This document shows positions 13,343-49,382 of a stretch of 64,000 nt of DNA, one piece after another. The position numbers were made by a program, and so were the translations under genes. Source of the stretch: Brevundimonas sp. GTDB taxonomy: Bacteria; Pseudomonadota; Alphaproteobacteria; Caulobacterales; Caulobacteraceae. Under the pieces are notes generated by a model. The model was not told the DNA's origin. It was given only the letters and a program-made list of their open reading frames with translations, and did no database searches. Location of the stretch: positions 21,538 through 85,537 of the forward strand of contig JAUYAG010000190.1 of NCBI GenBank assembly GCA_030693575.1, read 5' to 3'. Each line of letters begins with the position of its first letter. Positions within the stretch are counted from its first letter, which is position 1.

Positions 13343-13389
13343 CGTATCCCCCTGTTATCGATGGTTTTTGAGACTCACGCGTACTGGGT

Positions 13390-13419
13390 GGCGACGCGGA
13401 GGGGAGGCTCCGCGCCGCC
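13390..13419 (-). terminator. GC-rich hairpin just downstream of amtB (no U-run)
   Basis: GGCGACGCGGAG-GGGAGG-CTCCGCGCCGCC: 12-nt arms with one mismatch, lying between the amtB stop and the porin start. Confidence 0.3.
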
Positions 13420-13431
13420 GTCGGGTGGTCG

Positions 13432-14787: not shown

Positions 14788-14810
14788 TTGATCCCCCAAG
14801 GACAACATTA

Positions 14811-23420: not shown

Positions 23421-23953
23421 GTCTCGTTCTCCAGTCGGTCCAGCATGGGCTTCAGCGTCTCCGTCCAGACCTCGGGGGTGATCGGACCGACGTGGCGGTA
23501 GCGGACCCGGCCGTGTCCGTCGATGACGAAGGTCTCGGGCGCGCCTGTGACGCCGAAATCGATGCCGGTGCGGCCGCGCGGGTCCGAACCGATCAGGGTG
23601 TAGGGATTGCCCCGCTGGGCCAGCCATTCGGCCCCGTCGGCCGGCTCGTCCTTCCAGTCCAGCCCATGGATGGTCACGCCCTGCGACTGGAGACGCAGCA
23701 GCATCGGATGCTCGATGACGCAGGCCACACACCATGAGGCGAAGACGTTGAGCAGCACAGGCTTGCCAGTGAAGTCCGACGACGCCAGCCCCACGGTATC
23801 CTCGGGCGTCAGACCGGGCAGGTCGAAGGTCGGGATCGGCCGGTCGATCAGCATGGACGGCAGGATGCTGGGATCGCGACGAAGGCCCAGACCGAGGGCC
23901 GCGGCGACCATCAGGAACAGGGCGATCGGAATGATGAAGGCCAGCCGCCTCAT
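23417..23953 (-). CDS. ccmG: Thiol:disulfide interchange protein DsbE/CcmG
   Basis: N-terminal anchor and thioredoxin-fold motif FASWCVACVIEHP. Confidence 0.85.
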   Translation of the reverse strand: MRRLAFIIPIALFLMVAAALGLGLRRDPSILPSMLIDRPIPTFDLPGLTPEDTVGLASSDFTGKPVLLNVFASWCVACVIEHPMLLRLQSQGVTIHGLDWKDEPADGAEWLAQRGNPYTLIGSDPRGRTGIDFGVTGAPETFVIDGHGRVRYRHVGPITPEVWTETLKPMLDRLENET

Positions 23954-28502: not shown

Positions 28503-28506
28503 ACCC

Positions 28507-29379: not shown

Positions 29380-29386
29380 TGGCCCG

Positions 29387-32580: not shown

Positions 32581-32600
32581 GGCCGCTCCTCGCTTTCAGG

Positions 32601-33521: not shown

Positions 33522-33532
33522 GGTCATCTCTC

Positions 33533-34870: not shown

Positions 34871-34898
34871 GTATTCCCCCAACCGCTTGCAGATTGCC

Positions 34899-34915
34899 CG
34901 GGATAGTCTATCCCG
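34899..34915. promoter_or_regulatory. Perfect 17-bp palindrome CGGGATA-GTC-TATCCCG in the OMP / cyclase divergent promoter region
   Basis: Read directly. It lies 29 nt from the OMP ATG (34870) and 85 nt from the cyclase ATG (35000). Confidence 0.45.
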
Positions 34916-34999
34916 AACTGCGGAGCGATCAGGCTAACATCGTTCCGCGAGAAGCGCATGAACTAATCTGATAGTGCTTTTTCCGAGTGGGGCGGACGC

Positions 35000-37285
35000 A
35001 TGGGGGCGGAGCCTGAGACCGAGCGATTGAAGGAGATCGGGTCGCGCCTCGCGCGCTCCAGCCTTTCGCTTACGCGATACATCGCAACGGCCGGCCCTGG
35101 TCTGGTGGTGGGCTTGCTGCTGCTGATACTGCATATATTCCAGCCGCCGTTCGTCGGCAGCATCAGCAATCTGGTCTTCGACACCTATCAGCGCGCCTGG
35201 CCGCGTCCGTACGAGGACGCCGGGGTCCGGGTCGTCGACATCGATGACGAGAGCATCCGCCGTCTCGGCCAGTGGCCATGGCCGCGCACGGATGTCGTCC
35301 GCCTGACAGACGCTCTCACCGAGGCCGGCGCAGCGGCCATCGCCTTCGACATTGTCTTCTCCGAGCCGGACCGGACGTCGCCCGCTCGCGCCGTCGAAAT
35401 CCTGCGGCAGAACCCCGAGGCGCGCGGCGACTATGCCGAGATCGCCGCCATGACTGACCATGATGAACTGCTGGGCCAGGCCATGGGACGGGGCCCAACG
35501 GTCACCGGCTATTTCCTCACGGAGGAAGCCAACACCGCCCGGCCGGCCGAGCACGCGGGGGTCGCCGTTTCGGGGACGCCGCCGCTGGGCGTCCTGCGGG
35601 AATACAACGGTGCCATCGTCAGCCTGCCGGTGATCGGTGATCGCGCGGCGGGAGCCGGGTCTGTCAGCCTGGACGCGGGCCGGGACGACATGATCCGGGC
35701 GGTGCCGCTCATCGCCAATCTGGACGGCCAGATCATTCCCTCGTTGTCACTCGAGGCGCTCAGGGTCGCCCAGGACGCCGGCGCCGTTCTGGTCCGCAGC
35801 AGCGACGGCAGCGGCGAATGGGGTGGCGGTCCGGTCACCACCGTGCTTGCCGTCAAGACCGGCGACCTGGAGGTCCCGACCACCGACGTCGGCGAACTGT
35901 GGATGCACTACACCGCGCCCCATCCGGAGCGGATCGTGCCCGCCTGGCGGATCCTCCAGGGGGACCTGCCGGAGGCCGAGATGCGACGGCTGTTCGAGGG
36001 GCAGATCGTCTTCATCGGCACGGGTGCGATCGGCCTGCGGGACATCCGCTCAACCCCTACCCAGCAAGGCGAGCTCGGCGTCGTGATCCACGCCCAGGCG
36101 GCCGAGCAGATGATCCTCGGCAAGTTCCTCACGCGGCCCGACTGGGCTCCGGGCGCAGAGCGGATGCTCATGGTGGCGCTCTGTCTGCTGATCGCCCTCT
36201 CGGCTCCCGCGCTCGGCGCCCTGCGCGGCGGGGTGCTGGCCACGGCCGCACTGGGCGGCGTGCTGGCCGGATCGTGGCTGGCCTTCAGAAACAGCGGCGT
36301 GCTGCTGGAACCCATCTTCCCGGCGCTGGGCGTGGTCTCCGTCTACATCGCCATCACCGCCGTCTCCTTCTACCGGGAGGAGCGGGCGCGGAGTCACATC
36401 CACAACGCCTTCGACCGCTATCTGTCGCCGGAGCTCGTCGACCGGATCGCCCGCGATCCCGGCCAGCTGGAGCTCGGCGGCGAAGTGCGTCAGATGACGG
36501 TGCTGTTCAGCGACGTCCGGGGCTTCTCCCGCATCTCTGAACGCTTCGGGCCGCAGGAACTGATCGGTTTCCTCATCAACCTGCTGACGCCGATGACCGA
36601 CGTGCTCCTGGCCCGCAAGGCGACCATCGACAAATACATCGGCGACGCCGTTCTGGCCTTCTGGAACGCGCCACTCGACGACCCCGAGCACGAACGGAAC
36701 GCGGCCTTTGCGGCGCTGGAAATGCTCGAGACGCTCAAACGCCTGAACGCCGACAGCGCCCGCGATCCGGCTTGGCCCGGTCAGGTCGCGATCGGCATCG
36801 GCCTGAACACCGGCCCTTGCTGCGTCGGCAACATGGGTTCGCGCCAGCGCCTCAGCTATTCGCTGATCGGCGACACCGTTAACCTCGCCTCGCGTCTGGA
36901 GAGCCTGACCAAGGCCTATGCGGTGAACATCCTCGTCGGCGAGGACCTCGCCGCCCGCCTGCCCGACTTCGCCCTGATCGAACTGGACCTCATCCGCGTC
37001 GTCGGCCGCGACGCGCCCGAGCGCGTCTTCGCCCTGATGGGCCCGCCGGAACTGTCGTCAGACCCCGCCTTCGTTGAAACCGGGACCCGGATGGCCACCG
37101 TCCTCGAGGCGTACCGGTCCCGCGACTGGGCCGGTGCCGAGGCTGCACTGGAGAACCTGCGGGGTGCGGGTACGCTGCCGGGCCTTGAGGGCGTGGCAGC
37201 CATCTACGCCACGCGGGTTGCGGATTTCCGCGAGACCCCGCCGCCCGCCGACTGGGACGGAATCAGCCAGGCGCTGGAGAAATAG
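35000..37285 (+). CDS. CHASE2 sensor domain - class III adenylate/guanylate cyclase
   Basis: N-terminal TM, then a CHASE2-like periplasmic domain (VVDIDDESIRRLGQWPWPR, AFDIVFSEPD). Three or four TM helices follow, then the cyclase catalytic domain (MTVLFSDVRGFSRISE, KYIGDAVLAFWNAP, GLNTGPCCVGNMGS, IGDTVNLASRLES). Confidence 0.85.
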   Translation: MGAEPETERLKEIGSRLARSSLSLTRYIATAGPGLVVGLLLLILHIFQPPFVGSISNLVFDTYQRAWPRPYEDAGVRVVDIDDESIRRLGQWPWPRTDVVRLTDALTEAGAAAIAFDIVFSEPDRTSPARAVEILRQNPEARGDYAEIAAMTDHDELLGQAMGRGPTVTGYFLTEEANTARPAEHAGVAVSGTPPLGVLREYNGAIVSLPVIGDRAAGAGSVSLDAGRDDMIRAVPLIANLDGQIIPSLSLEALRVAQDAGAVLVRSSDGSGEWGGGPVTTVLAVKTGDLEVPTTDVGELWMHYTAPHPERIVPAWRILQGDLPEAEMRRLFEGQIVFIGTGAIGLRDIRSTPTQQGELGVVIHAQAAEQMILGKFLTRPDWAPGAERMLMVALCLLIALSAPALGALRGGVLATAALGGVLAGSWLAFRNSGVLLEPIFPALGVVSVYIAITAVSFYREERARSHIHNAFDRYLSPELVDRIARDPGQLELGGEVRQMTVLFSDVRGFSRISERFGPQELIGFLINLLTPMTDVLLARKATIDKYIGDAVLAFWNAPLDDPEHERNAAFAALEMLETLKRLNADSARDPAWPGQVAIGIGLNTGPCCVGNMGSRQRLSYSLIGDTVNLASRLESLTKAYAVNILVGEDLAARLPDFALIELDLIRVVGRDAPERVFALMGPPELSSDPAFVETGTRMATVLEAYRSRDWAGAEAALENLRGAGTLPGLEGVAAIYATRVADFRETPPPADWDGISQALEK

Positions 37286-37318: not shown

Positions 37319-38188
37319 ATGTTGATCGTTCAGATCACCGACATCCATATCGGCTTCGATCAGAAGAGCCGGTTCGAGATGAACAAGAAGCGTTTCCGCC
37401 AGACGGTCCAGGCGGTGACGAAGCTTGACCCGAAGCCCGATCTGATCGTGATCACCGGCGACATCGCCGACAAGGGCGACGTAGCGTCATACGAGTGGTT
37501 TCGTCAGGAAATCCAGCAGCTTTCCCTGCCCATCCTGATGTGTATGGGCAACCATGATTCACGGGCCAGCTTCAGTCAGGTCTTCCCTGATACGGCCCAG
37601 GAGGACGGCTTCATCCAGTATGTCGTCGACGACCATCCCCTGCGGATCGTGGTGGTGGACACGCTGGAGGAAGGCCGCCATGGCGGCGGCTTCTGCGAGA
37701 AGCGCGCGGCCTGGCTGGAGGCCCGCCTGGCCGAGGCGCCGCACCGGCCGACCCTGCTGGTCCTGCATCACCCGCCCATCGACACCGGCATCGAGTGGAT
37801 GACCATCGGCCCGGCCGAACCCTGGGTGCAGAGGTTCACCGACGTGGTCTCGCGCCACGGTCAGGTCGTCGGTGCCCTGTGCGGCCACGTCCACCGCACC
37901 ATCGTCACCTCATGGGCCGGCACGACCCTGACGGTCTGTCCTTCCACCGCCCCGCAGGTGGTGCTGGACCTCAAGCCGATGAACCTGGACCGTCCGGACA
38001 AGCGGCCGATGATCGCCGAGGCGCCGCCGTCGTTCGGCATTCACCGCTGGAACGGCCGCAAGCTGGTCAGCCATTTCACGGCGGTCCAGCGCTACAAGAT
38101 CCTCGCCCGCTATACGCACAAGATGCAGGCCTTCATGAAGCATCTGGCGCAGGAACGTGCCGGGACGGCCGGCCCACACCACCACTAG
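37319..38188 (+). CDS. Class III (CpdA/SpdA/GpdQ-like) metallophosphoesterase, probable cyclic-nucleotide phosphodiesterase
   Basis: Calcineurin-like motifs in order: ITDIHIG, TGDIADKG, GNHD, VLHHPP, GHVH. Confidence 0.75.
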   Translation: MLIVQITDIHIGFDQKSRFEMNKKRFRQTVQAVTKLDPKPDLIVITGDIADKGDVASYEWFRQEIQQLSLPILMCMGNHDSRASFSQVFPDTAQEDGFIQYVVDDHPLRIVVVDTLEEGRHGGGFCEKRAAWLEARLAEAPHRPTLLVLHHPPIDTGIEWMTIGPAEPWVQRFTDVVSRHGQVVGALCGHVHRTIVTSWAGTTLTVCPSTAPQVVLDLKPMNLDRPDKRPMIAEAPPSFGIHRWNGRKLVSHFTAVQRYKILARYTHKMQAFMKHLAQERAGTAGPHHH

Positions 38189-38201: not shown

Positions 38202-41200
38202 CTACTGTCCGCCGGCGGCCGCCAGCCAGCCGTCCAGCGCCGGCCGGTCGCTGACCCGGTACAGCTCGCCCCGATAGTCGAGGAACAGTCGCTCCATCTC
38301 GGTCCTGTTGAACGGCCGCGAGCCGAGGCGGCCGAAGATGGCGATCTGGTGCCCGGTCTCGTCCACGCCGCGGTCGCGGTCCAGCCCTTTGGACAGGGCC
38401 AGGGCCGGCGACGGCGTCCGCGCCCAGGCGATCAGTTCGGGCCGCGGCTCCGGCGAGAAACCGTAGAAATTGCGCTGGCTGTCGGGACTGGTCAGTTGCA
38501 GCACCTTCAGTCCGTTCCGGCCGTCGGCGACATAGGCGAACAGGCTGGCGTTGGTGGAGGCCACGACCACATCCTCGGCGTCGTTCAATTGGCCGTCGAA
38601 GGTCACCCGCTGGTGCAGGCGGGGCTGGCGCGGGTTGGTCACATTGATGATCACCAGCCCCTCGCCCTTTGCGGCGACATAGGCATAGGTCCGCGCGACA
38701 TAGAGTCGGCGGGCATCGCCCAGCGGAACGACGGCACCCTCGACGGCGCGCGGCTCATCCAGCTTTGTCACATCCAGAACCCGCATCCCCTGCGCGTCCG
38801 TGACGAACAGATAGCGGAACTGCAGCGCCGTAGCCCGGACGTCGTCCAGCCGCACCGTGGTGACATGGCGCGGCCGCAGCGGATCATCGAGGTCGACCAC
38901 CACCAGACCGGCGCGGGCGGCGATATAGGCGATGTGGCCCGCCAGGGTGATGTGCCGCGCGCCGTCCAGCACACCGCCGGGGTTCCAGGTCGCGGCGCGG
39001 CGCAGGTTGTTGTTGCGCGGATCGCCGTCGGCGAGGGTGTCGACATTGACCAGGATCAGCCCCTCGCGCGCGTCGGTGACCACGGCATAGCTGTAGATCG
39101 GGTGGAAGGCCTGTTCCTGGTTGGCGGTCCGCATCTCGGCCGTGTTGCGCGTCGGCGCGATGGGCTGGTTGGTCGGCAGGGCCATGCAGGTGGCGTTGCC
39201 GGAGGCCACATGGGTGTCATTGCCCAGCGGCGAGAAGGGTGCCGTCAGGATGCGGTCCGAGACGCCCTTGTTGCCGATCGATGCCACGTCATAGACCCGG
39301 AATCCGCCCCGGCCCTCGGCCACGAACATATATTCCCCGCGCAGCTGCAGGCAGCGCGCCTCACCGCCGGTGCGCTGGAGCGTATTGGCGATTTCCTCGA
39401 CGGATCGCGTATCCCCGCTGCCGCCGGCCTCAAGGTCGAAGGCCTCGCCCCGCGTCCAGTTGATCAGCTCGCGCCCGTTGCGCTCGACGTGCTGGGCGAA
39501 GAAGTCGGGATAGGCATAGCGCTGCAGATAGGAGCCGAACACCGCCTGCGGCTCGTCCCACTCGGTCACCCGCACCGCCTCGATGCCGGACGCCAGCCCG
39601 ACCCAGGCATGCATGCCGACGAAATTGACCGTGTTCGTCCCCAGCATCAGCAACTGGGCCATGATGGCGTTGTTGTCCTCGGCTTCGGAGACGTGACAGT
39701 CGGTGCAGGTCTTGGTCTCGGTGCGCCGGACCGTGTGCGGGAAATGCGGGGCGAAGGCCTGGCTGGAGAAGCCGACCGCCGAGATCGGCGGCTGCTGCAC
39801 ATAGATCCGCTCGCGGTTGATGTTGGTCGAGGACAGGACCAGGGCCGAGGACGAGCGGGCCGGGGCGATCACCCCGCCGCTCGCGGTTCCGTGACGGCCG
39901 AGCTGGAACATGTCGTCGCGCGCCACCTGCGGATTGTAGGTCGCGTAGTTGCGGGTCGTTCCGCCCTCGGCCCGGTGGCTCGTGGCCTGCCAGTTGGCCT
40001 CGACCGGCAGGTGGCAGCCGCCGCAGGATGGCGTCCATGAGGTGTGACAGCTGTAGCAGGCCATCTCCTCGTCATCGTGGGCCAGGTCGGTGGTCGCCAC
40101 GCCGGGCCCCCACGAGAAGCTGGCCTGACCGGGCCGCGACACCGACATCAGCTTGGCCCGCGCTGCCGCCGGATTGAACTCTGGACTGTCCCGATCGACG
40201 GCGTCGCGCACCAGATCGACCTCCCACTCCAGCGTCGGATCGACGATGGAGCGCTGGATCAGCACCCGGCGATTGTCGCGTTCGATCCATTCAAAGCGCC
40301 GCTGGCCGTCGGAATTCCTCAGCAGCGTCAGGTCCGTGCCCTCGGGCGGTGCCGCCGGGCCTGAAGTGCGCAGCGTCGGCAGGGCGCGCGATGTGCCGTG
40401 GCAGTCCTTGCAGCCGATCTCAACGGCCGCCGCCACCTCGCCCATGATCAGGCCCGAGCCGTGACTGTCCTGCGAGAAATGGCAGTCGGCGCACTGCAGG
40501 CCCTTCTCGGCGTGGATGTCCATCATGTGGACGGTGCGGCCCGGATTGGTCCCCGGCGGGACGAACTGGCCCTCCCCTTCCCGGCGCCAGCGCTCGGGAT
40601 CGTCGGGCGAGACGATGCCGCCCTCGGCGTCCAGCAGATTGCCCTCGCGGTCGCGCTTGAACACCCCGCGGAAATTCCAGCCGTGGCCGTGATAGTCGGC
40701 GAACTGGGTGTCGCGCAGGGTCGGATTCAGGTCGTTGACGGCGCGCAGGAAGTCCAGATCAGCCCAGTTGCCGCGCGGCGCGGCACCCTCGGGATTGCGG
40801 TCCAGAACGGCGCGGATTTCCTCGGCGGTCGGGTAGCGCTGCCGCTCCGGCCACATGGTCGGCGCGTCGGACTCATAGTCCCACATCGTGTATCCGAGGT
40901 AGCTGTTCAGGAACATGTTCGGCTGGTGCATGTGGCAGTTCATGCACTGGGACGTGGGGATGGCGCGGGTGAAGGCGTGGCGGATCGGATGGCCCGATTC
41001 CTCGCGGTTGATGGTCGGGTCCACGGTCGCCGTCTGGCCATCCCGCCCGAACTGCGAATAGCCCAGGCTGTGCCGCGGCTCGCGGTCGTTGGCGTAGACC
41101 ACGTGGCATGAGGTGCAGCCCGAGGAGCGGTAGTCGCCGGGCTGGTCATTGGTGCCCATGAACCAGGTGTAGGGGTCGTTCAGGCGGGTCTTGTGGATGT

Positions 41201-42128
41201 TCAGCACCGGCACGGCGATGCGCAGGCCGGTCCCCGGTCCGCGCGACGACTGACGGAAGTCCGGACGGCCCGGCTCCTCCAGCCGCTGGATCTGGCCCGT
41301 CGGACTGGGCAGGCCGATTTCGGGGAACTGGGTGGCGATGTTGCGCCCGCCGCGCTCGAACACCCGGAAGATGTCCCCGGGCGGCGTCACCTGCCAGGTC
41401 GGTATCGGATACAGCACCGGCAGGGCCCCGCGCCGCTGCTCGTCCAGCGTCACCGTCCCGGGCGGCGTGCCGGGGGAAAGCAGCCGCGCGGGCTCGCCTT
41501 CGGGGGTATAGGCCTCGCCGATGATGTAGTTTTTGTAGGGCAGGATACCGTTGTTGTACGAGGCGCCGCCGAAGAACATCGCCCCTGTCGCCATCAGGGA
41601 TCGTTCTGCTCTTTCAATCAGTTCCATGTGACAGTTGCCACAGGACTGACGGGCAACCCGATAATCACCGGGATTCACGAAACGAATGAACTCAGGTGCC
41701 TCGCGGTTGAGCAGGGTGTAGGTCCGCTCGGGATTGGCCGAACTGGGGAAATGCCAACTCCCGGGATAGCGAGGCAAAACGTGAGCTCTATCCCGTACTG
41801 CGCTGTATTCTGATGCTTCTCTGGATGCGCCGGCCGGAGCCATCGCGGTGGCGTCGCCGCCGTGGCAGTCGACGCACCCCAGCACGACCGCCGGCGAAGC
41901 ATGCATGCTCGCGGCGTCCACCGGACTGTGACAACTCACACAACCGACGCTCTTGGCGGCGGCCTGTTCGGGGGTCTGGTTGAGCGGCGCGGGCGGCGCG
42001 GCGACATAGACACGCGCGACAGGCGCCTCATCATCGTCAGCGATCACGGCGGCCGGAGAACCGGCAACGAGGATCGTCAGGACGGATACCGCCCCGATCA
42101 CCAGCCGCTTGCCCCCCCAGGTCCCCAT
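38202..42128 (-). CDS. 1308-aa secreted decahaem c-type cytochrome fused to a C-terminal LVIVD-repeat beta-propeller
   Basis: Signal/anchor KRLVIGAVSVLTILVAGSPAAVIA. There are 10 CXXCH motifs in roughly the first 830 aa: CVSCH, CVDCH, CGNCH, CTSCH, CMNCH, CADCH, CKDCH, CYSCH, CGGCH, CTDCH. The C-terminal approx 450 aa carry LVIVD-type units (GLILVNVDTL, GLVVVDLDDPLRP, GMRVLDVTKLDEP, GLVIINVTNPRQP, GLKVLQLTSP). Confidence 0.85.
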   Translation of the reverse strand: MGTWGGKRLVIGAVSVLTILVAGSPAAVIADDDEAPVARVYVAAPPAPLNQTPEQAAAKSVGCVSCHSPVDAASMHASPAVVLGCVDCHGGDATAMAPAGASREASEYSAVRDRAHVLPRYPGSWHFPSSANPERTYTLLNREAPEFIRFVNPGDYRVARQSCGNCHMELIERAERSLMATGAMFFGGASYNNGILPYKNYIIGEAYTPEGEPARLLSPGTPPGTVTLDEQRRGALPVLYPIPTWQVTPPGDIFRVFERGGRNIATQFPEIGLPSPTGQIQRLEEPGRPDFRQSSRGPGTGLRIAVPVLNIHKTRLNDPYTWFMGTNDQPGDYRSSGCTSCHVVYANDREPRHSLGYSQFGRDGQTATVDPTINREESGHPIRHAFTRAIPTSQCMNCHMHQPNMFLNSYLGYTMWDYESDAPTMWPERQRYPTAEEIRAVLDRNPEGAAPRGNWADLDFLRAVNDLNPTLRDTQFADYHGHGWNFRGVFKRDREGNLLDAEGGIVSPDDPERWRREGEGQFVPPGTNPGRTVHMMDIHAEKGLQCADCHFSQDSHGSGLIMGEVAAAVEIGCKDCHGTSRALPTLRTSGPAAPPEGTDLTLLRNSDGQRRFEWIERDNRRVLIQRSIVDPTLEWEVDLVRDAVDRDSPEFNPAAARAKLMSVSRPGQASFSWGPGVATTDLAHDDEEMACYSCHTSWTPSCGGCHLPVEANWQATSHRAEGGTTRNYATYNPQVARDDMFQLGRHGTASGGVIAPARSSSALVLSSTNINRERIYVQQPPISAVGFSSQAFAPHFPHTVRRTETKTCTDCHVSEAEDNNAIMAQLLMLGTNTVNFVGMHAWVGLASGIEAVRVTEWDEPQAVFGSYLQRYAYPDFFAQHVERNGRELINWTRGEAFDLEAGGSGDTRSVEEIANTLQRTGGEARCLQLRGEYMFVAEGRGGFRVYDVASIGNKGVSDRILTAPFSPLGNDTHVASGNATCMALPTNQPIAPTRNTAEMRTANQEQAFHPIYSYAVVTDAREGLILVNVDTLADGDPRNNNLRRAATWNPGGVLDGARHITLAGHIAYIAARAGLVVVDLDDPLRPRHVTTVRLDDVRATALQFRYLFVTDAQGMRVLDVTKLDEPRAVEGAVVPLGDARRLYVARTYAYVAAKGEGLVIINVTNPRQPRLHQRVTFDGQLNDAEDVVVASTNASLFAYVADGRNGLKVLQLTSPDSQRNFYGFSPEPRPELIAWARTPSPALALSKGLDRDRGVDETGHQIAIFGRLGSRPFNRTEMERLFLDYRGELYRVSDRPALDGWLAAAGGQ

Positions 42129-42135
42129 GCGCCCC

Positions 42136-43968
42136 TCAGAAACTAAGAACAGCGTTCAATAGAACGGAATAGAACCGATCGTCACGATTCTTCGCCTGGA
42201 ACAGGTCGCCGAAGCCGTCGCCAGGCTCGAAGACGGCCGCAGAGGCACGCAGGACGACATTCTGGGTCATCATCGGTCGCCAGATGGCAGAGACCGATAC
42301 GTCGAAGCCCAGCTCCTTCGGGATCGAACCCTCCTGCCGTAAGGCCTGAACCACCGCCGTGTCCGCGAACCAGAGATGATTGGCGTTGGCGCTGACCCTG
42401 AGTTGGGGCGTCAGGTCCAGATCGGTCCCGAACCCGACCAGAATGGTGCCGGGGTTGTTGAAGTTGGACTGCCCCTCCTCCTTGGAAGACCGCAGCGAGT
42501 TCAGCACGGCGTTGCGGCCGTTCACACCGATCGCCCGCCCGCCGCCGGCGAACGGGATCGACTGGCGGATCCAGTAGCTGGTGTCGGCCCCGGCGAACTG
42601 CGGGTTCTCGAAGATGGCGTCGAACCCCTCCTCGACATCGTCATAGGGGTCCGGGTCGCCGGAAGCGTAGAGTCCGGAAGCGCGGAACCGCATCCAGTCG
42701 AAGTCGATCGACGGCTCGACCGCCAGGAAGAAGGCGCGGATGTCCGCCGGCTGGCCCGTGAACATGCTGTTCCGGTCCTCACCCAGCGCCGCATAGGCCG
42801 AGGCCGTCAGATTGATCCGACCGATCCGGCCGTCGGCGTTGTAGCCCAGATAGGCGACGTCATAGTCGCGGCCCCGCAGGTCGCCGAGCAGCGCCGGGCG
42901 GGCCGGGAAGCCGTTGTCGTCGATATGGATGTCATCGCTCTCGCGGTTGCGGTTGTAGATTACCGTCCACTGCGAGGTCATGCCCGGAACCGGCAGGTCC
43001 TGCCGATACAGGTTGGCGACCAGAATCTGGTCGTCCCTGATCGACTGGGTGATGTCGTTCAGGCCCGAGTTGGTGTCCTTCTCCAGCCTCAGGAAGAGCC
43101 CCAGATTGTACTGGTAGCGGTTGTTGTCGCGGTTCCCGAACAGCCGCACGCCCAGCTGGTTGTCCTGGAACAGGAACCCCCGGAAATCGGAGGTGAAGGG
43201 CTGGATTCCGACCCGCACCGAGTCGAAGTCATAGCGCTCCGAGACGTTGCGCAAATGGTAGTCGAAGAAGGCTTCCTGCACGCCGAGGAAGGAATCCTGC
43301 CGGTCGGGGCCCTTCGAGGGCCTGACGGACAGGATGCGCCGCTCCGGCACGCTGACATCGCTGTAGTTGAAGGCGAGGGTCAGGCGGGCCTCGAAATCGG
43401 GCGGCTTGAACGCCGTCGACCCTTCGATCAGCGCCACCGAGGCGATGAATGTCTGGGACAGGATCAGGCTGTTCGAGCGCCCAAAGACGTCCAGGCTGTT
43501 CGGGTCCTGCGTGGTCTGGACTCCCACCGGCAGCGGCAGCGAGCGCGGCTCGATCACAGTGTCCGACACCCCGGCGACAACGACGAACAGATTCTCATGG
43601 CCCGGCAGCGGCCGGTCGCCCTTGAGTGTGTTCTGGTTATAGGGGTCGAACCAGCGCTCGTTGACGCCGACGGCCTCGATCACCCGCCAGCGGTCCGGAA
43701 GCGGCAGATGGTCCGCCGGAAAGGCCTCGGGCGGCGGCGCGCGCACCGCGCCTGGATTGGCCTGGATGATGGCCTCGGGATAGTTTTCGACCCGCCCTGG
43801 CCGGCGACGGATCGGTGCATCGGGGTCGATCTGCTGCGGCGGCTCAACGTCCCGGGACGGCTGGGGCACGGCGGGCTGGATGACCAGCGGCAGGCCTTGC
43901 GCAGCGGCGTCGGATGCCGAGAGGCACCCCAGGCTCACAACGATCAGGGCGGGCCATGCCACCTTCAT
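42136..43968 (-). CDS. 610-aa outer-membrane beta-barrel protein (putative porin/sheath)
   Basis: The real start MKVAWPALIVVSLGCLSASDAAAQ is at 43968 (TGATG overlap with the upstream stop). The sequence is long, with alternating amphipathic strands, many Y/F/W-G/D/N turns, and a C-terminal ...AVLSF. The stop lies 7 nt before the next ATG. Confidence 0.7.
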   Translation of the reverse strand: MKVAWPALIVVSLGCLSASDAAAQGLPLVIQPAVPQPSRDVEPPQQIDPDAPIRRRPGRVENYPEAIIQANPGAVRAPPPEAFPADHLPLPDRWRVIEAVGVNERWFDPYNQNTLKGDRPLPGHENLFVVVAGVSDTVIEPRSLPLPVGVQTTQDPNSLDVFGRSNSLILSQTFIASVALIEGSTAFKPPDFEARLTLAFNYSDVSVPERRILSVRPSKGPDRQDSFLGVQEAFFDYHLRNVSERYDFDSVRVGIQPFTSDFRGFLFQDNQLGVRLFGNRDNNRYQYNLGLFLRLEKDTNSGLNDITQSIRDDQILVANLYRQDLPVPGMTSQWTVIYNRNRESDDIHIDDNGFPARPALLGDLRGRDYDVAYLGYNADGRIGRINLTASAYAALGEDRNSMFTGQPADIRAFFLAVEPSIDFDWMRFRASGLYASGDPDPYDDVEEGFDAIFENPQFAGADTSYWIRQSIPFAGGGRAIGVNGRNAVLNSLRSSKEEGQSNFNNPGTILVGFGTDLDLTPQLRVSANANHLWFADTAVVQALRQEGSIPKELGFDVSVSAIWRPMMTQNVVLRASAAVFEPGDGFGDLFQAKNRDDRFYSVLLNAVLSF

Positions 43969-45944
43969 CACGGCGCACTGCAGACATTCTGTTGCGAGGA
44001 ATCGAGGAAGGGCGCGAACGGACAGCTGACATAGCGCAGCCGGGTCGAGCCGCCGGGATGGGTCACGACAATCTGGTCTGACCGGATCGCCGCCGGCGCC
44101 TGGCTGATGCCACCCACCCGGATAGCGGCATTCTGGAGACCGAGGAAGGAGATCATGTCGTCCTGGTCGATGCCGTCGCCGGATACGCCGATCGCCCCGA
44201 TCAGCTGCGTGCCCCGATAGATCGGCACGCCGCCCGGGAAGATCTGGAGGCCGTTCTGGAGCCGGTTCCGGCCCGGCGCGGCGTCCGGCAATGCGGTGCA
44301 ACGCGCGACCGTGTCCGCCCCCAGACCGCTGACGAAGCCGACGTGCTGGCCGAGGTTGGCCAGGATCAGGGCGGTTTGCAGGCCCGTCGAGAACGGGCTC
44401 CACATGCTGATCGGCCGTGACAGCGGACCACTGGTCGAGCCGACCTCACCGTCGGGGAAATACGGCCGCGCCAGATTGCCGACGCCGCGCACACTGAACG
44501 CGGTCTGCCCGGTCAGGGCCGTCGGCCTCGACAGGAAGGTCCGGGTCTGGCCGACAAAGGCGTTCACGTCCGCCGAGGGGGCGCCGGACAGGTCGGCGGC
44601 GGCGGCGGCGTTCGACAGGAAGCTGGCGGTGCGGGCCTTCTGCACGGCCACGTCGATGCCGAACAGCGGGGCGTCGGGCGATCGCACCAGTCCGAGGGTC
44701 ACGCCGTGGGTGTCGACCACTGCGATCGAGACCTGGGCGCGGCTGTCCAGCGGACGGCGGATCTGCGCCCGCGCCCGGCTCATGATGGTGAAGGCCTCTT
44801 CCAGCACCGCGCGGGTCTCGGCGGCGGTCAGAGGCGCGCCGACGGAGCCCGCATCCGTACCGCCCTGCACCGGATAGCGGGCGCCGCCCGACCCGTCGGT
44901 CAGGATGAAGGCATCGACATTGTTGAACTCGCCCGCCGTCGCCTTGCGCACGCCCGAGGCCTCGGTCCCGTAGGTCTGGCCCGCGATCGCGCCCGGCCCG
45001 GCGTAGTAGCCGGCAACCGGGGTGAACGCGCCCGTCCCCACCGGCAGCGTCCCGAAAGCCGGCGCCGAGGCCGGCGTGCTCATGAGGGTGGCCGCCGTGG
45101 CGTCGCTGTAGCGAAGCGTCGTTCCATCCACCGCCACCCGGTCGGCCTGGATGTCTACGGACGGCGCCAGACCCGTCCCGGCGGCCAAGGCGATGTGCTC
45201 CTCGATGTCAGCATCCACGTCCAGCACATTGACATCAAAGCCGTAATCGTTCTCGGCGATCACCCCGACCCCGCCGACCAGCACCCCGTTCTTGTACAGC
45301 GGGAAACCGCCGGGATCGGCCGCGAGACCCAGCGGCGACCGCTTCGGTCCGATCAGGGCCGACGGCCCGCCGCCGGCGACGAACCGGCTCGAAATATCCG
45401 AACAGGGCAGCTGGCTGAACTGCACCCCGAACAGCGGCCCGCTTTCCAGGCCCGCCGTCGAGGGGGCGGGCGGGAAATGCTGCTGCACGATCATATTGGC
45501 GGTGCGGCTGGAAAAGGCGTTGCCGCCGGACGAGAGGTAAGCCCCCGTGACGGCCTTTGCGATCGCCCCCGCCGCAGCCGGCACGACCACGCCCTGCAGG
45601 TCGACATCGACCGTCGCGCCGGGCCGCAAGGTGATCGTCGCCGGTGCGCCGGTCATGGAATAGACCGCCAGCACATTGCCGACCCGATCGGTGACAGCGA
45701 TCACGGCGGGCCGCGATCGCGCACGGGCCTCGGCCACGGCGCGGGCCAGCACCCCTTCGACGTCCGCCCCGGACAACGCCTCGGCCGCGGGCACGGCATA
45801 AAGGGCACCGCTTCCGCCGCCGCCACCACCGCCACCACCGCCACCACCACCACCGCCGCCGCTGGACGACCCGCCGCCGCCGCAACCGGCCAACATCAGG
45901 CTGGCCAGAGCCGCCAGAACCAGACTCCTCGCCCGTCCGCTCAT
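43968..45944 (-). CDS. Lipoprotein with poly-Gly tether and two GlcG/HbpS-like (DUF336) domains
   Basis: Lipobox LMLAGC followed by GGGGSSSG(16)SG. There are two DUF336-type cores (IAVTDRVGNVLAV ... GGFPLYKNGVLVGGVGV; IAVVDTHGVTLGLV ... GGVPIYRGTQLIGAIGVSGDGIDQDD). ATGA overlap with the upstream gene. Confidence 0.7.
   Translation of the reverse strand: MSGRARSLVLAALASLMLAGCGGGGSSSGGGGGGGGGGGGGGGGSGALYAVPAAEALSGADVEGVLARAVAEARARSRPAVIAVTDRVGNVLAVYSMTGAPATITLRPGATVDVDLQGVVVPAAAGAIAKAVTGAYLSSGGNAFSSRTANMIVQQHFPPAPSTAGLESGPLFGVQFSQLPCSDISSRFVAGGGPSALIGPKRSPLGLAADPGGFPLYKNGVLVGGVGVIAENDYGFDVNVLDVDADIEEHIALAAGTGLAPSVDIQADRVAVDGTTLRYSDATAATLMSTPASAPAFGTLPVGTGAFTPVAGYYAGPGAIAGQTYGTEASGVRKATAGEFNNVDAFILTDGSGGARYPVQGGTDAGSVGAPLTAAETRAVLEEAFTIMSRARAQIRRPLDSRAQVSIAVVDTHGVTLGLVRSPDAPLFGIDVAVQKARTASFLSNAAAAADLSGAPSADVNAFVGQTRTFLSRPTALTGQTAFSVRGVGNLARPYFPDGEVGSTSGPLSRPISMWSPFSTGLQTALILANLGQHVGFVSGLGADTVARCTALPDAAPGRNRLQNGLQIFPGGVPIYRGTQLIGAIGVSGDGIDQDDMISFLGLQNAAIRVGGISQAPAAIRSDQIVVTHPGGSTRLRYVSCPFAPFLDSSQQNVCSAP
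45810..45885. repeat. (GGN)n simple-sequence tract encoding the poly-Gly/Ser tether
   Basis: The plus strand reads as a run of GCC/ACC triplets (…CCGCCGCCGCCACCACCGCCACCACCGCCACCACCACCACCGCCGCC…). Translated on the minus strand it gives G4-S3-G16. Confidence 0.8.
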
Positions 45945-47338
45945 CGCGCGCGCCTCACAGCGGTCGCAACGCCGCCCATGGCGCGGCGGAATTCCTGTGG
46001 CCGATAGCGGTTGGGATCGCGCACGGCGGCATAGGCGCGATCAATCTCGGGCCGCATCGCCCGAACGGCGCCCGCGTCGATCTCGCCCTGGGCGACCAGG
46101 GCGTTCAGCAGGGTGTCGACCGCCATGACCGCCTGCGCACCGCCGGAATAGTCGGTGTATCGCGGTGCCAGCGCCTCCCCGAGCACGTCCTCCAGGATGG
46201 CGAAGGTGTCGGCGCGGCTGAACGGGCTGGAGGCGAAACTCGCCGACAGCTGGCCGGCCGTTCCGGCAAGGCGGCGAGCCGCCTCGACAGCGCCGGCGCG
46301 GTCGGAGCCAAGCGCCTGGTGGAAGGCGCGTGAGTCGGTCTGGAAGCGCTGGGCCAGCGACGCCGGTGCCGTCCTGGCCGCGGCGGCCAGCATGATCATG
46401 TTCTCGTCGTTGAACGGCGGCATGCCCGCGGGGATCGGCCGGCCCGGATTGGCCTCCACCAGCAAGGGGGCGTTCGGCTCGTCCGAAATCGGCCGGTGGC
46501 AGCTGTGGCAGTCGAAGAAATAGAACTCGGGGAAGACACCGTTCCCGCCCCGCTCCGTGTCGCCATAGACCGTCAGGATCCGCTGCAGCGCCACAGCCTG
46601 GCCGATGGCCCACAGCCGGGCGGAATCCATCGTCGCCTTGCGCTGCACATAGTCGGCATCGACATCGTGGTGCTGCTGGAAGGCGGTAAAGAGCTCCAGC
46701 TCGAACGACAGGCGCGGATGTCCGGCGCTCATCATCTCGTGGGTCACGAACTGGTTGGGCTTGTCGCTGCCCCAGTGGCAGTCGAGGCAGACATTGGCCC
46801 GCACCACCGGATCCTCGAGCGGCGTCATGCCCCGCGCCACATTGGCCGCATGACTGACGCCGACGGTATAGTGGCTGGCGATCCAGCCGCCCGACGGTCC
46901 GTGACAGCTCTCGCAGCCGACGCCGTCGGAAACCTGGAACCGGGCACCCCGCGCGGCGGCGGGCTCGGCATGGCAGCCCAGACAGGCGGGGGCGTTCTGG
47001 GCCGGGCCCAGACCCAGCCGGCGGGTGATCCCCTGCGCGCGTGGATAGGTCAGGGTGCGCCAGGCCCGGCTGTGTGATCCGCCGGGACCGGTCGGGTCCT
47101 GCCAGCTGACCAGTTCGTTCTGGCGCACGACGGCCCCGTCGGGTGCCTGACGGCCATGGCAGGTCGATCCGGCACAGGAGGCCACGCCCTCATGGACGCC
47201 CGGTGATGACAACTGGCTCGCGGACGCCCGCGAGGGCAGGACGGTGCCGATCCCGATGCAGAGCGCCAGGAACAGGGCGACGCTCGCCCAGACCGCAACC
47301 GGGCGGATACGACCCACGCTGATCGTCGTCGTTGTCAA
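45941..47338 (-). CDS. Multihaem c-type cytochrome, cytochrome c554-like (4 CXXCH + 1 CX4CH)
   Basis: N-terminal anchor/signal (VAVWASVALFLALCIGIGTVL). Haem motifs: CAGSTCH (variant), CLGCH, CESCH (GVGCESCHGPSGGW, c554-family-like), CLDCH, CHSCH. The start at 47338 is TTG, so the start is uncertain. Confidence 0.75.
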   Translation of the reverse strand: MTTTTISVGRIRPVAVWASVALFLALCIGIGTVLPSRASASQLSSPGVHEGVASCAGSTCHGRQAPDGAVVRQNELVSWQDPTGPGGSHSRAWRTLTYPRAQGITRRLGLGPAQNAPACLGCHAEPAAARGARFQVSDGVGCESCHGPSGGWIASHYTVGVSHAANVARGMTPLEDPVVRANVCLDCHWGSDKPNQFVTHEMMSAGHPRLSFELELFTAFQQHHDVDADYVQRKATMDSARLWAIGQAVALQRILTVYGDTERGGNGVFPEFYFFDCHSCHRPISDEPNAPLLVEANPGRPIPAGMPPFNDENMIMLAAAARTAPASLAQRFQTDSRAFHQALGSDRAGAVEAARRLAGTAGQLSASFASSPFSRADTFAILEDVLGEALAPRYTDYSGGAQAVMAVDTLLNALVAQGEIDAGAVRAMRPEIDRAYAAVRDPNRYRPQEFRRAMGGVATAVRRAR

Positions 47339-47454: not shown

Positions 47455-48441
47455 CTAGTCTTCGGGGGTCCAGCGCCGGATGATGGTCCTCGCAGCCCCG
47501 CCCGGGCGGGATTCAATCAGGGCCGTGCGCACGGCGTGAGCGCCGCCGTGGTCAACCTCGATGCGCACATCGAAATAGTCGGTCCGGACCGTAACCTGTT
47601 CGCGGACCTCCAGCGGGACCTGCAGCCGGGTCAGCGCCGGCTGGCTCCAGAAGGCGGCCGGGTCGGGCCAGCCCCCTTCGGGCCGACGGTCGATGACCGC
47701 CCGGGCGTCAGCGGGGCCGAGCACACCGCCGGTCAGCATGACCACCAGCGGCGCGTCGGCCGGGGCCAGGGTGTTGACGTTGATGGGCGAACGCTCGGTC
47801 GGCAAGGCGCACACATAGGGCCGAAGCCGGGCATAGGCGTCGCCACCGACGCCGCGAACCGTCCGCAGCTCCGACACCTCGGCCAGCAGCGTCCCGCTCG
47901 TCCGGTACGGCTCGGCCCTGCCGACATAGGCGCTGTCCTCGGCACCCAGAGGCCGTGCGATGGTATCGCTGTCGATCCAGTCGATCAGGCTGTCGGTGAT
48001 GGTCCCCATCGTCACCGCGTCGACCCCGACCGCGCGTCCCAGGGACAGAAGCTGCGCCGCGCCGATGGGCCGGGCCGCCAGCCGGTCGCCGGTCCAGGTG
48101 ACGACGCTGTTCAGGTTGAAGCAGGTCTGGCCGTCGCGCACCGTCGCGGTCAGGCGTCCATCCTCGAGCGGCAGGGTGATGGTCTGGCCATTCCACTCCG
48201 GCTGCAGCGGCGTCCGGTCCGGATGGAGAGACGTCAGCCTGGCGATCCGTCGTCGCGCCAGCGTCTCGGCGCCGTCTGCATACCATTGGGCCTGTCCGCC
48301 GGTTTCCGCATTGATGGTTCGCCGCACAGAGAACCGCACATCGTCCAGCACGGCCGTCGCCACCAGGGCCATCACCGCGACGAGCAGCAAGACAGTCAGC
48401 AGCGCCATGCCCTCGCGAACCCGCCGGAACCCGCCCGTCAT
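47455..48441 (-). CDS. gspK: Type II secretion minor pseudopilin GspK-like
   Basis: GMALLTVLLLVAVMALVA N-terminus, DGQTCFNLNSV and LRTVRGVGGDAYARLRPYVCALP...INVNTL motifs, all typical of GspK. Confidence 0.8.
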   Translation of the reverse strand: MTGGFRRVREGMALLTVLLLVAVMALVATAVLDDVRFSVRRTINAETGGQAQWYADGAETLARRRIARLTSLHPDRTPLQPEWNGQTITLPLEDGRLTATVRDGQTCFNLNSVVTWTGDRLAARPIGAAQLLSLGRAVGVDAVTMGTITDSLIDWIDSDTIARPLGAEDSAYVGRAEPYRTSGTLLAEVSELRTVRGVGGDAYARLRPYVCALPTERSPINVNTLAPADAPLVVMLTGGVLGPADARAVIDRRPEGGWPDPAAFWSQPALTRLQVPLEVREQVTVRTDYFDVRIEVDHGGAHAVRTALIESRPGGAARTIIRRWTPED

Positions 48442-49040
48442 CGCCCGCCCCCGACCAGGAACAGCTGCGAGAGCCGGCCGTACCCGGCAAGCGTGAACTC
48501 GAGTCGCACAGCGTCAGGCGTGCTTCCGGTCGGGCCCATGGTCGGGCCGGGGCTATCGCGGCCCTCCTGGACGAAGGTCACGGTCAGATCCGTGACCCCG
48601 GACAGCAGTTGCTGGGGCGGCCCTGGACGCGATCCGTCCAGAAAAGGCGAGATCCGGCGCTCCAGTCGGTTCCCGACGAGGCTGTATTCAACCCGTTGAA
48701 GCGACGACCGGCCCGCCCCGCCGGCATTGCTCCAGCCTGCGCGGGTGAGGACCAGGACAGGGCCGTCCGGAACGGTGGCCCCCGTCAGCGCGAGGGGGTG
48801 GGGTTCGCCGTTCCTGTCGCGCGTGCGCCGGCCGGTCGCCTGACCGAGATCGGCCTTCAGGAGGCTGCGCATCCGCTGCAATCCGGCGGTGCGGTCGGTG
48901 GCGGACCGGACCGCAAAGCGGTTGTCGATCGAGACGGAAAGCACGGCCGTGCCCGCGGCCGCGATGAGGGCGAACAACATCAAGGCGACCAGGGCCTCGA
49001 CCAGGGTAAAGCCGGACCGGACCCGTGCCGGGATGATCAT
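48438..49040 (-). CDS. gspJ: Type II secretion minor pseudopilin GspJ-like
   Basis: Prepilin-type N-terminus RSG/FTLVEALVALMLFALIAAAG. 200 aa. The real start is at 49040 inside the longer ORF. ATGA-type 4-nt overlap with gspK. Confidence 0.7.
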   Translation of the reverse strand: MIIPARVRSGFTLVEALVALMLFALIAAAGTAVLSVSIDNRFAVRSATDRTAGLQRMRSLLKADLGQATGRRTRDRNGEPHPLALTGATVPDGPVLVLTRAGWSNAGGAGRSSLQRVEYSLVGNRLERRISPFLDGSRPGPPQQLLSGVTDLTVTFVQEGRDSPGPTMGPTGSTPDAVRLEFTLAGYGRLSQLFLVGGGR

Positions 49041-49161
49041 GAACCTGTTGCCCCCCCATGCTGCGGCGGAGACTACACCCATGCGCGCCGGCGCCCGCAA
49101 GTCCGCACGCCTGGCTGGGACGACAAGCCCACTGGCCCGCAACCCTCTTGCACTGCAACAA

Positions 49162-49186
49162 TTTACGTAACATTGTTCGCTATAAT
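49162..49186 (+). promoter_or_regulatory. Sigma-70/73-type promoter TTTACG-N11-GCTATAAT
   Basis: Close match to the Caulobacter housekeeping consensus TTGACGS-N10-14-GCTANAWC, in the only AT-rich patch of this intergenic region. It overlaps a TTACGTAA-centred quasi-palindrome. Confidence 0.4.
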
Positions 49187-49217
49187 TGACCCGCCCGCAC
49201 TCACGCAAAGCAAGACG

Positions 49218-49382
49218 ATGCTGAAATCCCTGAAATGCCTGCTCAAAGGGCATGCCTATGTCGATAGCCGGAGTCATCCCGGAACGCGGGTCTGCGTTCG
49301 TTGCCGGCATCGCAAACCCTTCGAAGGGCTAGCGCCGCCCGCGACGGGGGCCGACACCGCCGACAAGACCAGGGACGACTGA
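49218..49382 (+). CDS. Small (54 aa) Cys/His protein, possible zinc-ribbon (DUF1660-like?)
   Basis: MLKSLKCLLKGHAYVDSRSHPGTRVCVRCRHRKPFEG... begins about 30 nt after the predicted promoter. It has a C-x4-H ... C-x2-C arrangement. I see no clear SD. Confidence 0.3.
   Translation: MLKSLKCLLKGHAYVDSRSHPGTRVCVRCRHRKPFEGLAPPATGADTADKTRDD

Follow-up and report, generated by a model that had tools for sequence, protein, structure and literature searches.

A 64,000-nucleotide stretch of Brevundimonas sp. DNA (assembly GCA_030693575.1, contig JAUYAG010000190.1, positions 21,538 to 85,537; hereafter the window) carries a four-gene minus-strand operon, g1–g4, at 38202–47338, in which multihaem cytochromes accompany an outer-membrane β-barrel. 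Our analysis indicates that g1–g4 are probably the outer half of a seven- to eight-gene, envelope-spanning system that exports electrons from NAD(P)H, under the control of a second messenger, to an outer-membrane complex. Electrons would flow from NAD(P)H to a cytoplasmic flavo-iron–sulfur protein (A), then to an inner-membrane protein (B), to an anchored decahaem cytochrome (C), to g1, and finally to g4. The original prediction for this locus had treated the four genes as the complete unit. The functional unit appears to be larger: A-B-C lie about 7 kb away in the window, and a gene for a cyclic nucleotide (cNMP) phosphodiesterase sits beside the operon.

The four minus-strand open reading frames (ORFs) were all recovered at the positions first assigned to them. 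They encode a pentahaem c554-like cytochrome, predicted to be periplasmic (g1, 45941–47338, 465 aa, TTG start codon); a predicted outer-membrane lipoprotein with two HbpS/DUF336-like domains (g2, 43968–45944, 658 aa); an outer-membrane β-barrel (g3, 42136–43968, 610 aa); and a Sec-exported decahaem cytochrome fused to an LVIVD β-propeller (g4, 38202–42128, 1308 aa). Read along the minus strand, the g1 stop overlaps the g2 start in ATGA, the g2 stop overlaps the g3 start in TGATG, and a 7-nt gap separates g3 from g4 (TGA-GGGGCGC-ATG), exactly as had been described. The closest public contigs are metagenome-assembled genomes (MAGs) of Brevundimonas/Caulobacteraceae, which are 93–97% identical to the window.

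The operon is conserved well beyond these relatives. Counting one genome per species, at least 592 homologues of the barrel were confirmed. Counts for related loci refer to the best 80 of these, all from Alphaproteobacteria (Caulobacterales, Sphingomonadales, Parvularculaceae, and Enterovirga), whereas distant loci are nine from other phyla; labels such as L001, L080, L081, and L089 denote individual homologous loci compared with the window. In alphaproteobacterial loci with enough contig, g1 precedes g2 in 59 of 59, g2 precedes g3 in 65 of 65, and g4 follows g3 in 66 of 66, with median intergenic gaps of −1, 6, and 1 nt from g1 to g4. Because gene order, spacing, haem counts, and the g2 lipobox are all kept, the co-conservation on which the original prediction depended is borne out, with coupling and haem motifs retained. 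Searches with g3 and g4 each returned at least 8000 significant candidates (90%-identity clusters), and the named copies are mostly annotated as "hypothetical protein" or otherwise given a generic domain label. At 50% clustering, an exhaustive search with the g4 cytochrome domain gave 2941 representatives, of which 638 had E ≤ 1e-30. Full-length g4 members occur in one MAG each of Planctomycetota and Candidatus Xenobia, and profile searches place the family in Acidobacteria, Rokubacteria, Wallbacteria, Calditrichaeota, KSB1, and Nitrospirota. The identity of g4 to its homologues in other phyla is 46–56%. In nine of nine distant loci, the gene immediately upstream of the g4 homologue encodes a barrel, and the six barrels checked by BLAST are 39–42% identical to g3. 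The distant loci share a core consisting of an HbpS-like gene, the barrel, a multihaem cytochrome (MHC)–LVIVD gene, and a c554-like gene. This core is abundant and unusually conserved: between phyla, the 1300-aa cytochrome retains roughly 50% identity and the outer-membrane barrel roughly 40%.

The link to an inner-membrane module emerges from these distant loci. Four further genes recur in them, encoding a cNMP-binding Fe–S protein, a pyridine-nucleotide flavoprotein or NuoF-like NADH module, a small membrane protein, and a second multihaem cytochrome. When proteins of the distant loci were searched back against the window, the matches fell at 26052–31237, the position of A-B-C. These three genes lie within 10 kb of g1–g4 in 29 of the 46 alphaproteobacterial loci with full flanks. 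Most Sphingomonadales have g1-g2-g3-g4 converging on an operon of the phosphodiesterase, C, B, and A, and all eight genes share one strand in L065 and L080. On a Nitrospirota contig, A, B, C, the HbpS-like gene, the barrel, the MHC-LVIVD gene, and the c554-like gene form seven consecutive same-strand genes behind a cyclase-domain gene. cNMP/Fe–S or NuoF-type NADH modules also adjoin the core in Acidobacteria, Wallbacteria, KSB1, and Rokubacteria. In L081, L084, and L086 (Acidobacteria and Rokubacteria), the Pyr_redox input is swapped for a NuoF-like protein (Complex1_51K, NADH_4Fe-4S). It is accompanied in L081 and L084 by a 719–723-aa Fer2_4/Fer4/cNMP_binding protein; the NuoF-like gene of L086 is truncated where that locus ends. 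NAD(P)H modules of two unrelated types thus appear to serve the same downstream chain.

The domain content of A, B, and C is consistent with a transmembrane electron-input module. A (26052–28502, plus strand) is an 816-aa cytoplasmic fusion of an FAD/NAD(P)H oxidoreductase with two cNMP-binding domains and two [4Fe-4S] clusters; Pfam matches are Pyr_redox_3 (1e-30), cNMP_binding (5e-35, in two stretches), and Fer4_7 (4e-13), with no transmembrane (TM) segments. Its homologues flanking g1–g4 in Alphaproteobacteria are 58–81% identical. B (28507–29379, plus strand), which always sits between A and C, is a polytopic inner-membrane protein of 290 aa with five TM-like segments. These segments hold two H-x13-H pairs, His96/His110 and His268/His282, that are invariant in 39 of 39 homologues, four of them from other phyla. 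Having two such pairs within membrane helices is typical of di-haem b electron carriers, among them the ferric-reductase/NOX domain, and we infer that B is a transmembrane electron carrier of this kind. Its Pfam scores are all below threshold: b561, 17.8 bits (cutoff 30.1); DUF4405, 24 bits (cutoff 26.7); and Ferric_reduct, E 0.15. C (29387–31237, plus strand; the ORF is listed from 29309, with a likely ATG at 29387) is an inner-membrane-anchored decahaem cytochrome with a cytoplasmic FHA domain (5e-5), one TM helix, and 10 periplasmic CXXCH motifs (Cytochrome_C7, 1e-16). Homologues in other phyla have one N-terminal TM segment and 9–10 CXXCH motifs.

The arrangement proposed for A and B resembles that of NOX, FRE, STEAP, and MsrQ, in which electrons pass from NAD(P)H to flavin, to two bis-His b-haems, and to an extracytoplasmic acceptor under heavy regulation. 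The first histidine pair of NOX2, His101/His115, has the same H-x13-H spacing as B; the second, His209/His222, is one residue closer. There are differences: in the window the dehydrogenase is a separate soluble protein with Fe–S clusters and cNMP domains, the chain continues via 25 c-type haems to the outer membrane (10 in C, 5 in g1, and 10 in g4), and B falls under the Ferric_reduct threshold. By analogy, the cluster would work like a porin–cytochrome pathway joined to an inner-membrane step of the ferric-reductase/NOX type.

In the proposed mechanism, A would oxidize NAD(P)H in the cytoplasm, passing electrons to FAD and then to its two [4Fe-4S] clusters, with its two cNMP-binding domains acting as a gate. 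B would move the electrons across the inner membrane via two stacked b-haems, following ferric-reductase/NOX logic. The anchored decahaem protein C and soluble pentahaem g1 would relay them through the periplasm to g4, which would form an outer-membrane assembly together with the 18-strand barrel g3 and the tandem-HbpS lipoprotein g2. An extracytoplasmic acceptor would be reduced at the g2–g3–g4 site; candidates are Fe(III), Mn(IV), or humics, O2, or another periplasmic or extracellular oxidant. We infer outward flow because the Pyr_redox and NuoF-like inputs interchange while the rest of the chain stays, and because the membrane potential favors outward transfer by a simple di-haem protein. 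Reducing NAD+ by inward flow, by contrast, would proceed without visible energy coupling.

The two cytochromes of the operon are consistent with a role in such a relay. The first, g1, has four CXXCH motifs and one CX4CH, a count kept in 59 of 60 homologues. It reaches the gathering score of Pfam Cytochrome_C554 (PF13435; 42.7 bits, cutoff 20.8, E 1.1e-10), and a profile of its homologues matches Nitrosomonas europaea c554 at 8e-8 and Thermochromatium tepidum c552 (5ZE8) at 4.5e-5. It is not CycA itself, scoring 16.7 bits against a cutoff of 400 for the Nitrosomonas equivalog, and its Ala-rich C-terminal half belongs to no family. The c554-like assignment and motif count of the original prediction hold; the N-terminal anchor it proposed is not established, as the N-terminus resembles a cleavable Sec signal (ASA/SQ).

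The second cytochrome, g4, comprises a decahaem domain (aa ~30–910) and a C-terminal LVIVD β-propeller (aa ~915–1308; PF08309, 59.9 bits, cutoff 20.2, E 1.5e-16, gathering score reached), in agreement with its first description as a secreted 1308-aa protein with 10 CXXCH motifs. All ten motifs are conserved across phyla, and their count is kept in 60 of 66 alphaproteobacterial homologues. An AlphaFold2 (AF2) model of aa 28–915, built with a cross-phylum alignment, is confident (predicted local distance difference test, pLDDT, 78; predicted template modeling score, pTM, 0.82). Neither single-sequence nor profile searches found relatives of g4 among solved structures. A Foldseek search of the PDB with the model likewise gave no match (best E 1.1), a null result that is no proof of a new fold, Foldseek being weak on loop-rich multihaem folds. 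Sequence and fold searches revealed no resemblance to MtrC/OmcA, NrfA, hydroxylamine oxidoreductase (HAO), Otr, MccA, or TsdA. Because at least 12 histidines outside the haem motifs are conserved in the cross-phylum alignment, sufficient for bis-His ligation of all ten haems, and no CXXCK motif is present, g4 seems to fit an all-bis-His wire better than a catalytic haem protein, although this is only suggestive. The propeller holds few conserved His or Cys residues for a metal site; might it serve as a docking platform? A stretch of 58 residues in the cytochrome domain (aa ~246–303; 41220–41390, minus strand) is near-invariant in Alphaproteobacteria and has pLDDT <50 in the otherwise confident model. 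It may become ordered only upon partner binding.

The properties of g1 and g4 also bear on whether the chain might run in the opposite direction. An oxidative enzyme, in which g4, together with g1, oxidizes a small periplasmic substrate delivered by the barrel (such as a sulfur or nitrogen compound, Fe(II), or Mn(II)) and hands the resulting electrons to the aerobic respiratory chain or, in reverse flow, to NAD(P)+, would account for the membership of g1 in the c554 superfamily, given that Nitrosomonas c554 accepts electrons from HAO. The hosts are aerobes, one distant locus adjoins a caa3 oxidase cluster, the barrel is sized like a substrate channel, and g4 is conserved in sequence to a very high degree, as an enzyme would be. 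Nonetheless, we consider this alternative quite improbable. A catalytic haem signature was not seen, the conserved histidines suffice for bis-His ligation throughout, and similarity to HAO, NrfA, Otr, MccA, and TsdA is absent in both fold and sequence. Moreover, a conserved flavo-Fe–S partner on the NAD(P)H side stands behind the di-haem protein, and inward flow would be uphill. The original prediction had itself offered a periplasmic enzyme with the barrel as its substrate channel. That idea is conceivable and overlaps with the NAD(P)H-export reading; neither a catalytic haem signature nor a known reductase fold was found.

The size of the g3 barrel bears on what kind of outer-membrane complex can be envisaged. 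The protein carries an ordinary Sec signal with no conserved lipobox and ends in ...VLSF. An AF2 model built from 35 homologues, of moderate confidence (pLDDT 60, pTM 0.63), agrees with its first assignment as an outer-membrane β-barrel: it contains 18 long strands (aa ~116–609) and one 5-residue strand, with short periplasmic and long outside connections, and the N-terminal ~110 residues are disordered. Foldseek against the PDB gave AlgE for all of the top 15 matches (E 4e-15 to 5e-12), followed by MOMP and OccK/OprD, all 18-strand barrels. By sequence, g3 has no relative among solved structures. Pfam at E ≤ 1 matched neither g3 nor five homologues, and in a sixth recognized only an N-terminal CarboxypepD_reg domain, leaving the barrel unmatched; no MtrB/PioB or Alginate_exp signal was seen in g3 even at this threshold. 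AlgE (PDB 3RBH, 4AFK) remains the best structural match, with 18 strands, long loops, and a TM-score of about 0.6 to the target. However, the identity is only 11–14%, the Pfam Alginate_exp family (PF13372) is unmatched, and the neighbors are cytochromes rather than alginate genes, so the fold alone is shared. The AlgE pore is electropositive. Compared with AlgE, g3 has an additional conserved Pro-rich N-terminal extension of 85 aa (aa ~25–110) and an acid-rich, near-invariant 72-aa loop (aa 436–507), which is its longest. This loop and that at aa 295–312 rank among the most conserved parts of the protein, with many invariant acidic and polar residues. Because surface loops normally vary, these loops are likely to fold into the lumen or hold a partner. 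Rather than a cytochrome sheath, the barrel is more likely a specific channel or docking site through which an acceptor, a product, or a segment of a partner protein would pass. In the barrels of L081 and L086 (Acidobacteria MAGs), L087, and L089, an N-terminal CarboxypepD_reg domain occupies the place of the alphaproteobacterial Pro-rich extension.

These features of g3 set the cluster apart from the MtrCAB, PioAB, and MtoAB conduits, with which it shares multihaem cytochromes beside an outer-membrane barrel, a decahaem count, and an envelope-spanning electron path. The MtrB/PioB barrel has 26 strands as compared with 18 modeled for g3, and g3 matches no MtrB_PioB model in Pfam or NCBIfam. 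A barrel of about 18 strands, resembling AlgE, MOMP, and OccK/OprD, could not sheath a cytochrome as MtrB does, for which at least 26 strands would be needed; an MtrB-like sheath was rejected on this predicted size. The MtrA/DmsE family (decahaem, about 300–350 aa) is also unmatched, with g1, which has five haems in 465 aa, scoring 20.1 bits and C scoring 22.1 bits against TIGR03508 (cutoff 192.2). Unlike MtrC/OmcA, g4 is no lipoprotein; it scores 19.8 bits against PF22113 (cutoff 30) and has no Foldseek match to these proteins. The input differs as well: Mtr systems draw on a quinol dehydrogenase such as CymA, whereas the window encodes an NAD(P)H flavo-Fe–S protein. The porin–cytochrome (Pcc) and Ext systems of Geobacter (OmaB-OmbB-OmcB, ExtHIJKL, extMNOPQS) are similar in combining a porin-like barrel, multihaem proteins of the periplasm and outer membrane, and a non-cytochrome lipoprotein, which is the rhodanese ExtH in Geobacter and HbpS-like g2 in the window. 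Short haem-binding stretches of g4 resemble ExtM (68.6 bits, cutoff 800), ExtN (36 bits), and ExtO (37 bits; cutoff 200 for both), and the GSU2203 family gave 17.9 bits (cutoff 325). No homologous barrel was found, and the inner-membrane module differs. With every family test failing, the parts lie outside the Mtr/Pio/Mto and Geobacter Pcc families, as the original prediction had surmised by eye.

A true trans-outer-membrane conduit of the Mtr/Pcc kind, in which haems or g2 reach the surface and insoluble extracellular acceptors or donors are used, is nevertheless conceivable, and we judge it unlikely. The combination of porin and multihaem cytochrome follows conduit logic, and the barrel–g4 pair is invariant in the distant loci. 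The long, flexible Gly/Pro linker of g2 is of the type found in surface-exposed or barrel-threaded lipoproteins, and the invariant, low-confidence stretch of g4 at aa ~246–303 could insert into the barrel. On the other hand, the AlgE-like lumen is far smaller than that of 26-strand MtrB, and the family thresholds for MtrA/DmsE, MtrB/PioB, and MtrC are all unreached. Nothing points to the surface exposure originally envisaged for g4, which has a Sec signal and no lipobox. The type II secretion genes GspJ and GspK, which adjoin g1 in this genome and would speak for such a conduit, are absent from 80 of 80 related loci. From the original prediction, an undescribed multihaem and barrel system with conduit logic thus survives, whereas a barrel of the sheath type does not.

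Beside the barrel gene lies that of the lipoprotein g2. This protein reaches the Pfam gathering score for HbpS-like/DUF336 (PF03928) in three stretches (85.7 bits, cutoff 25, E 3.5e-24), and its two halves align to each other (E 7e-6), indicating internal duplication. An LAGC lipobox is followed by a poly-Gly linker of about 25 glycines. The two-domain lipoprotein that had been proposed is thereby corroborated. The lipobox is kept in 60 of 65 g2 homologues. An HbpS-like gene lies within 10 kb of the core in eight of nine distant loci, and all five distant N-termini examined have a lipobox-like ...GC or ...AC motif plus a linker. It may carry haem b or act as a tether threaded through the barrel.

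Given that the HbpS family includes haem-binding and redox-stress-sensing proteins, according to its Pfam description, the cluster might instead handle haem or iron or sense redox state, with HbpS binding haem or iron, the barrel importing it, the cytochromes reducing Fe(III) or haem, and the cNMP parts reporting. B resembles a ferric-reductase-type membrane protein, a FecR-domain protein is encoded nearby, and the many invariant acidic residues of barrel loop L7 would suit cation binding. We regard this explanation as highly improbable: 25 c-type haems far exceed the complement of known assimilatory ferric reductases; the cluster showed no sign of a TonB-dependent receptor, an ABC importer, or an iron-regulator site; and the FecR link is sporadic, FecR usually pairing with CHASE2 sensors and not with iron uptake. 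Nor did a search reveal a conserved operator palindrome; the only candidate upstream of g1, GATG-N8-CATC, occurs in 10 of 65 loci. In the corresponding search at gene A, the window's own upstream region was the sole qualifying sequence.

In the NAD(P)H-export reading, the second-messenger genes would control the chain. Next to g4, at 37319–38188 on the plus strand, lies a gene for a 289-aa metallophosphoesterase of the cNMP phosphodiesterase type (Pfam Metallophos; NCBIfam SpdA 3e-47 and CpdA 3e-31, both under the equivalog cutoffs). It adjoins the cluster in 31 of 46 full-flank loci and is the final gene of the A-B-C operon in most Sphingomonadales. Upstream of it, at 35000–37285 on the plus strand, a 761-aa adenylate/guanylate cyclase with a CHASE2 sensor (Pfam CHASE2 1e-49, Guanylate_cyc 3e-21) is the likely source of the cNMP signal; such a cyclase adjoins the cluster in Caulobacterales and some Sphingomonadales. 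Because A bears cNMP-binding domains, the phosphodiesterase can share its operon, and a cyclase is a frequent neighbor, the gene content suggests that cyclic nucleotides gate A, with the cyclase and phosphodiesterase setting the second-messenger level. The FHA domain of C suggests additional control through phosphorylation. This phosphothreonine-binding domain precedes the TM helix in alphaproteobacterial C (29387–29800, plus strand), and homologues from other phyla do not have it. In the cluster of the KSB1 locus L083, FHA domains occur both in proteins of their own and in a flavoprotein, and a Ser/Thr kinase is encoded close by.

Several points weigh against the export of NAD(P)H electrons by this cluster. 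A-B-C are not within 10 kb of the core in 17 of 46 alphaproteobacterial and two of nine distant loci, and in the window itself genes for gdh, FecR, TPR, and cyclase proteins separate them from the operon. B reaches no Pfam threshold, the barrel model is only moderately confident, and no component has a characterized orthologue. What the sequences show directly is the gene content, the cofactor motifs, the size of the barrel, and the conserved linkage; the direction of electron flow, the sequence of carriers, cNMP gating, and the place of the terminal reaction are deduced from these. The model assigns no firm role to the HbpS lipoprotein or the LVIVD propeller, and why aerobic heterotrophs should run NAD(P)H electrons along 25 haems, with no evident conservation of energy, is a physiological puzzle.

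Literature searches found no description of the g1–g4 set, and the only relevant work is a 2024 preprint on marine Alphaproteobacteria that reports ptdABCDEFG (penta/tetra/deca-haem), a cluster with no assigned function (bioRxiv 10.1101/2023.11.21.568154). Its parts are a pentahaem cytochrome, a porin, an FAD/NAD(P) oxidoreductase, a tetrahaem cytochrome, a cNMP-binding 2×4Fe-4S protein, a ferric-reductase-like membrane protein, and a decahaem cytochrome; it is reported from marine or saline taxa, and the pentahaem PtdA is related to T. tepidum c552 (bioRxiv 10.1101/2023.11.21.568154). We consider ptd the closest described system, a likeness judged from the published description and not from sequence alignment. 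By description, A corresponds to PtdC in its N-terminal part and PtdE in its C-terminal part, B to PtdF, C to PtdG, g1 to the pentahaem protein, and g3 to the porin; the g1 profile matches 5ZE8, the c552 structure cited for PtdA. The systems differ in that the flavoprotein and the cNMP/Fe–S protein are fused in the window and separate in ptd, the ptd pentahaem is described as carrying a β-sandwich, and no tetrahaem gene to match PtdD was found in the window. Conversely, the HbpS/DUF336 lipoprotein and the decahaem–LVIVD propeller of the window cluster are absent from the ptd description.

If NAD(P)H electrons are indeed exported to the envelope or beyond, many ordinary aerobes would own an electron-export route that bypasses the quinone pool and is under second-messenger gating. 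Such a route would bear on metal and humic cycling, extracellular reactive-oxygen production, and bioelectrochemistry. It would also provide a first function for the LVIVD propeller–cytochrome fusion and new functions for the tandem HbpS lipoprotein, an unclassified barrel family, and a cNMP-binding Fe–S flavoprotein. A bolder version, which we find possible but rather doubtful, is that the cluster represents a new multi-phylum class of extracellular electron transfer, common among aerobic heterotrophs of soil and water (such as Caulobacterales, Sphingomonadales, Acidobacteria, and Nitrospirota), that moves NAD(P)H electrons over both membranes under cyclic-nucleotide control. Here, a small AlgE-like barrel, a tandem HbpS lipoprotein, and a decahaem–propeller protein would replace the MtrB-type sheath.

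Other genes around the cluster vary between lineages. In the window, the stretch between C and the phosphodiesterase (31222–37285) holds gdh (glutamate dehydrogenase), a FecR-domain protein (32601–33557, minus strand; Pfam FecR), a TPR protein (33533–34882, minus strand; Pfam TPR), and the CHASE2 cyclase. It looks like a lineage-specific insertion or rearrangement common to the Brevundimonas-like contigs L001–L004, and gdh was rejected as a system component because it is a lineage-specific neighbor. FecR/TPR genes stand beside g1 or the cyclase in several loci (e.g., L005, L019, L061, and L063); the two proteins possibly partner the CHASE2 cyclase, and their tie to the electron-transfer system is weak. 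Divergent from A are the cytochrome c maturation genes ccmI/ccmH/ccmF (21751–25929, minus strand; Pfam CcmF_C, CcmH, and TPR_CcmH_CycH), which would suit a locus encoding 25 c-type haems. CcmF occurs within the 10-kb flanks of only two of 80 alphaproteobacterial loci besides the window, and for this reason ccmFHI was rejected as a dedicated maturation system.

Between pyrG and g1 (47455–49310, minus strand) are two orphan genes for minor pseudopilins of type II secretion (T2SS), namely GspK (NCBIfam, 273 bits) and GspJ (96.9 bits). No further T2SS genes were detected among the ~30 larger ORFs scanned with Pfam or NCBIfam, and pyrG directly adjoins g1 in L004; a functional tie of the pair to the cluster was rejected because of its absence from the related loci noted above. 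An Rfam scan of the window at gathering thresholds found zero RNA families. Scanning for promoters and terminators yielded two promoter-like matches, both internal and on the plus strand, while terminator-like sites were fewer than in shuffled sequences; none of these was taken as signal. Just downstream of the core in the Rokubacteria locus L084 (16279–22851 of that locus) is a different multihaem cluster with cytochromes of 968 and 488 aa, a mono/dihaem cytochrome c, and a 514-aa protein of no family that might be a porin. Farther upstream in the window, gltB and gltD (glutamate synthase) and an ammonium transporter gene (6589–14808, minus strand) provide an ordinary housekeeping context.

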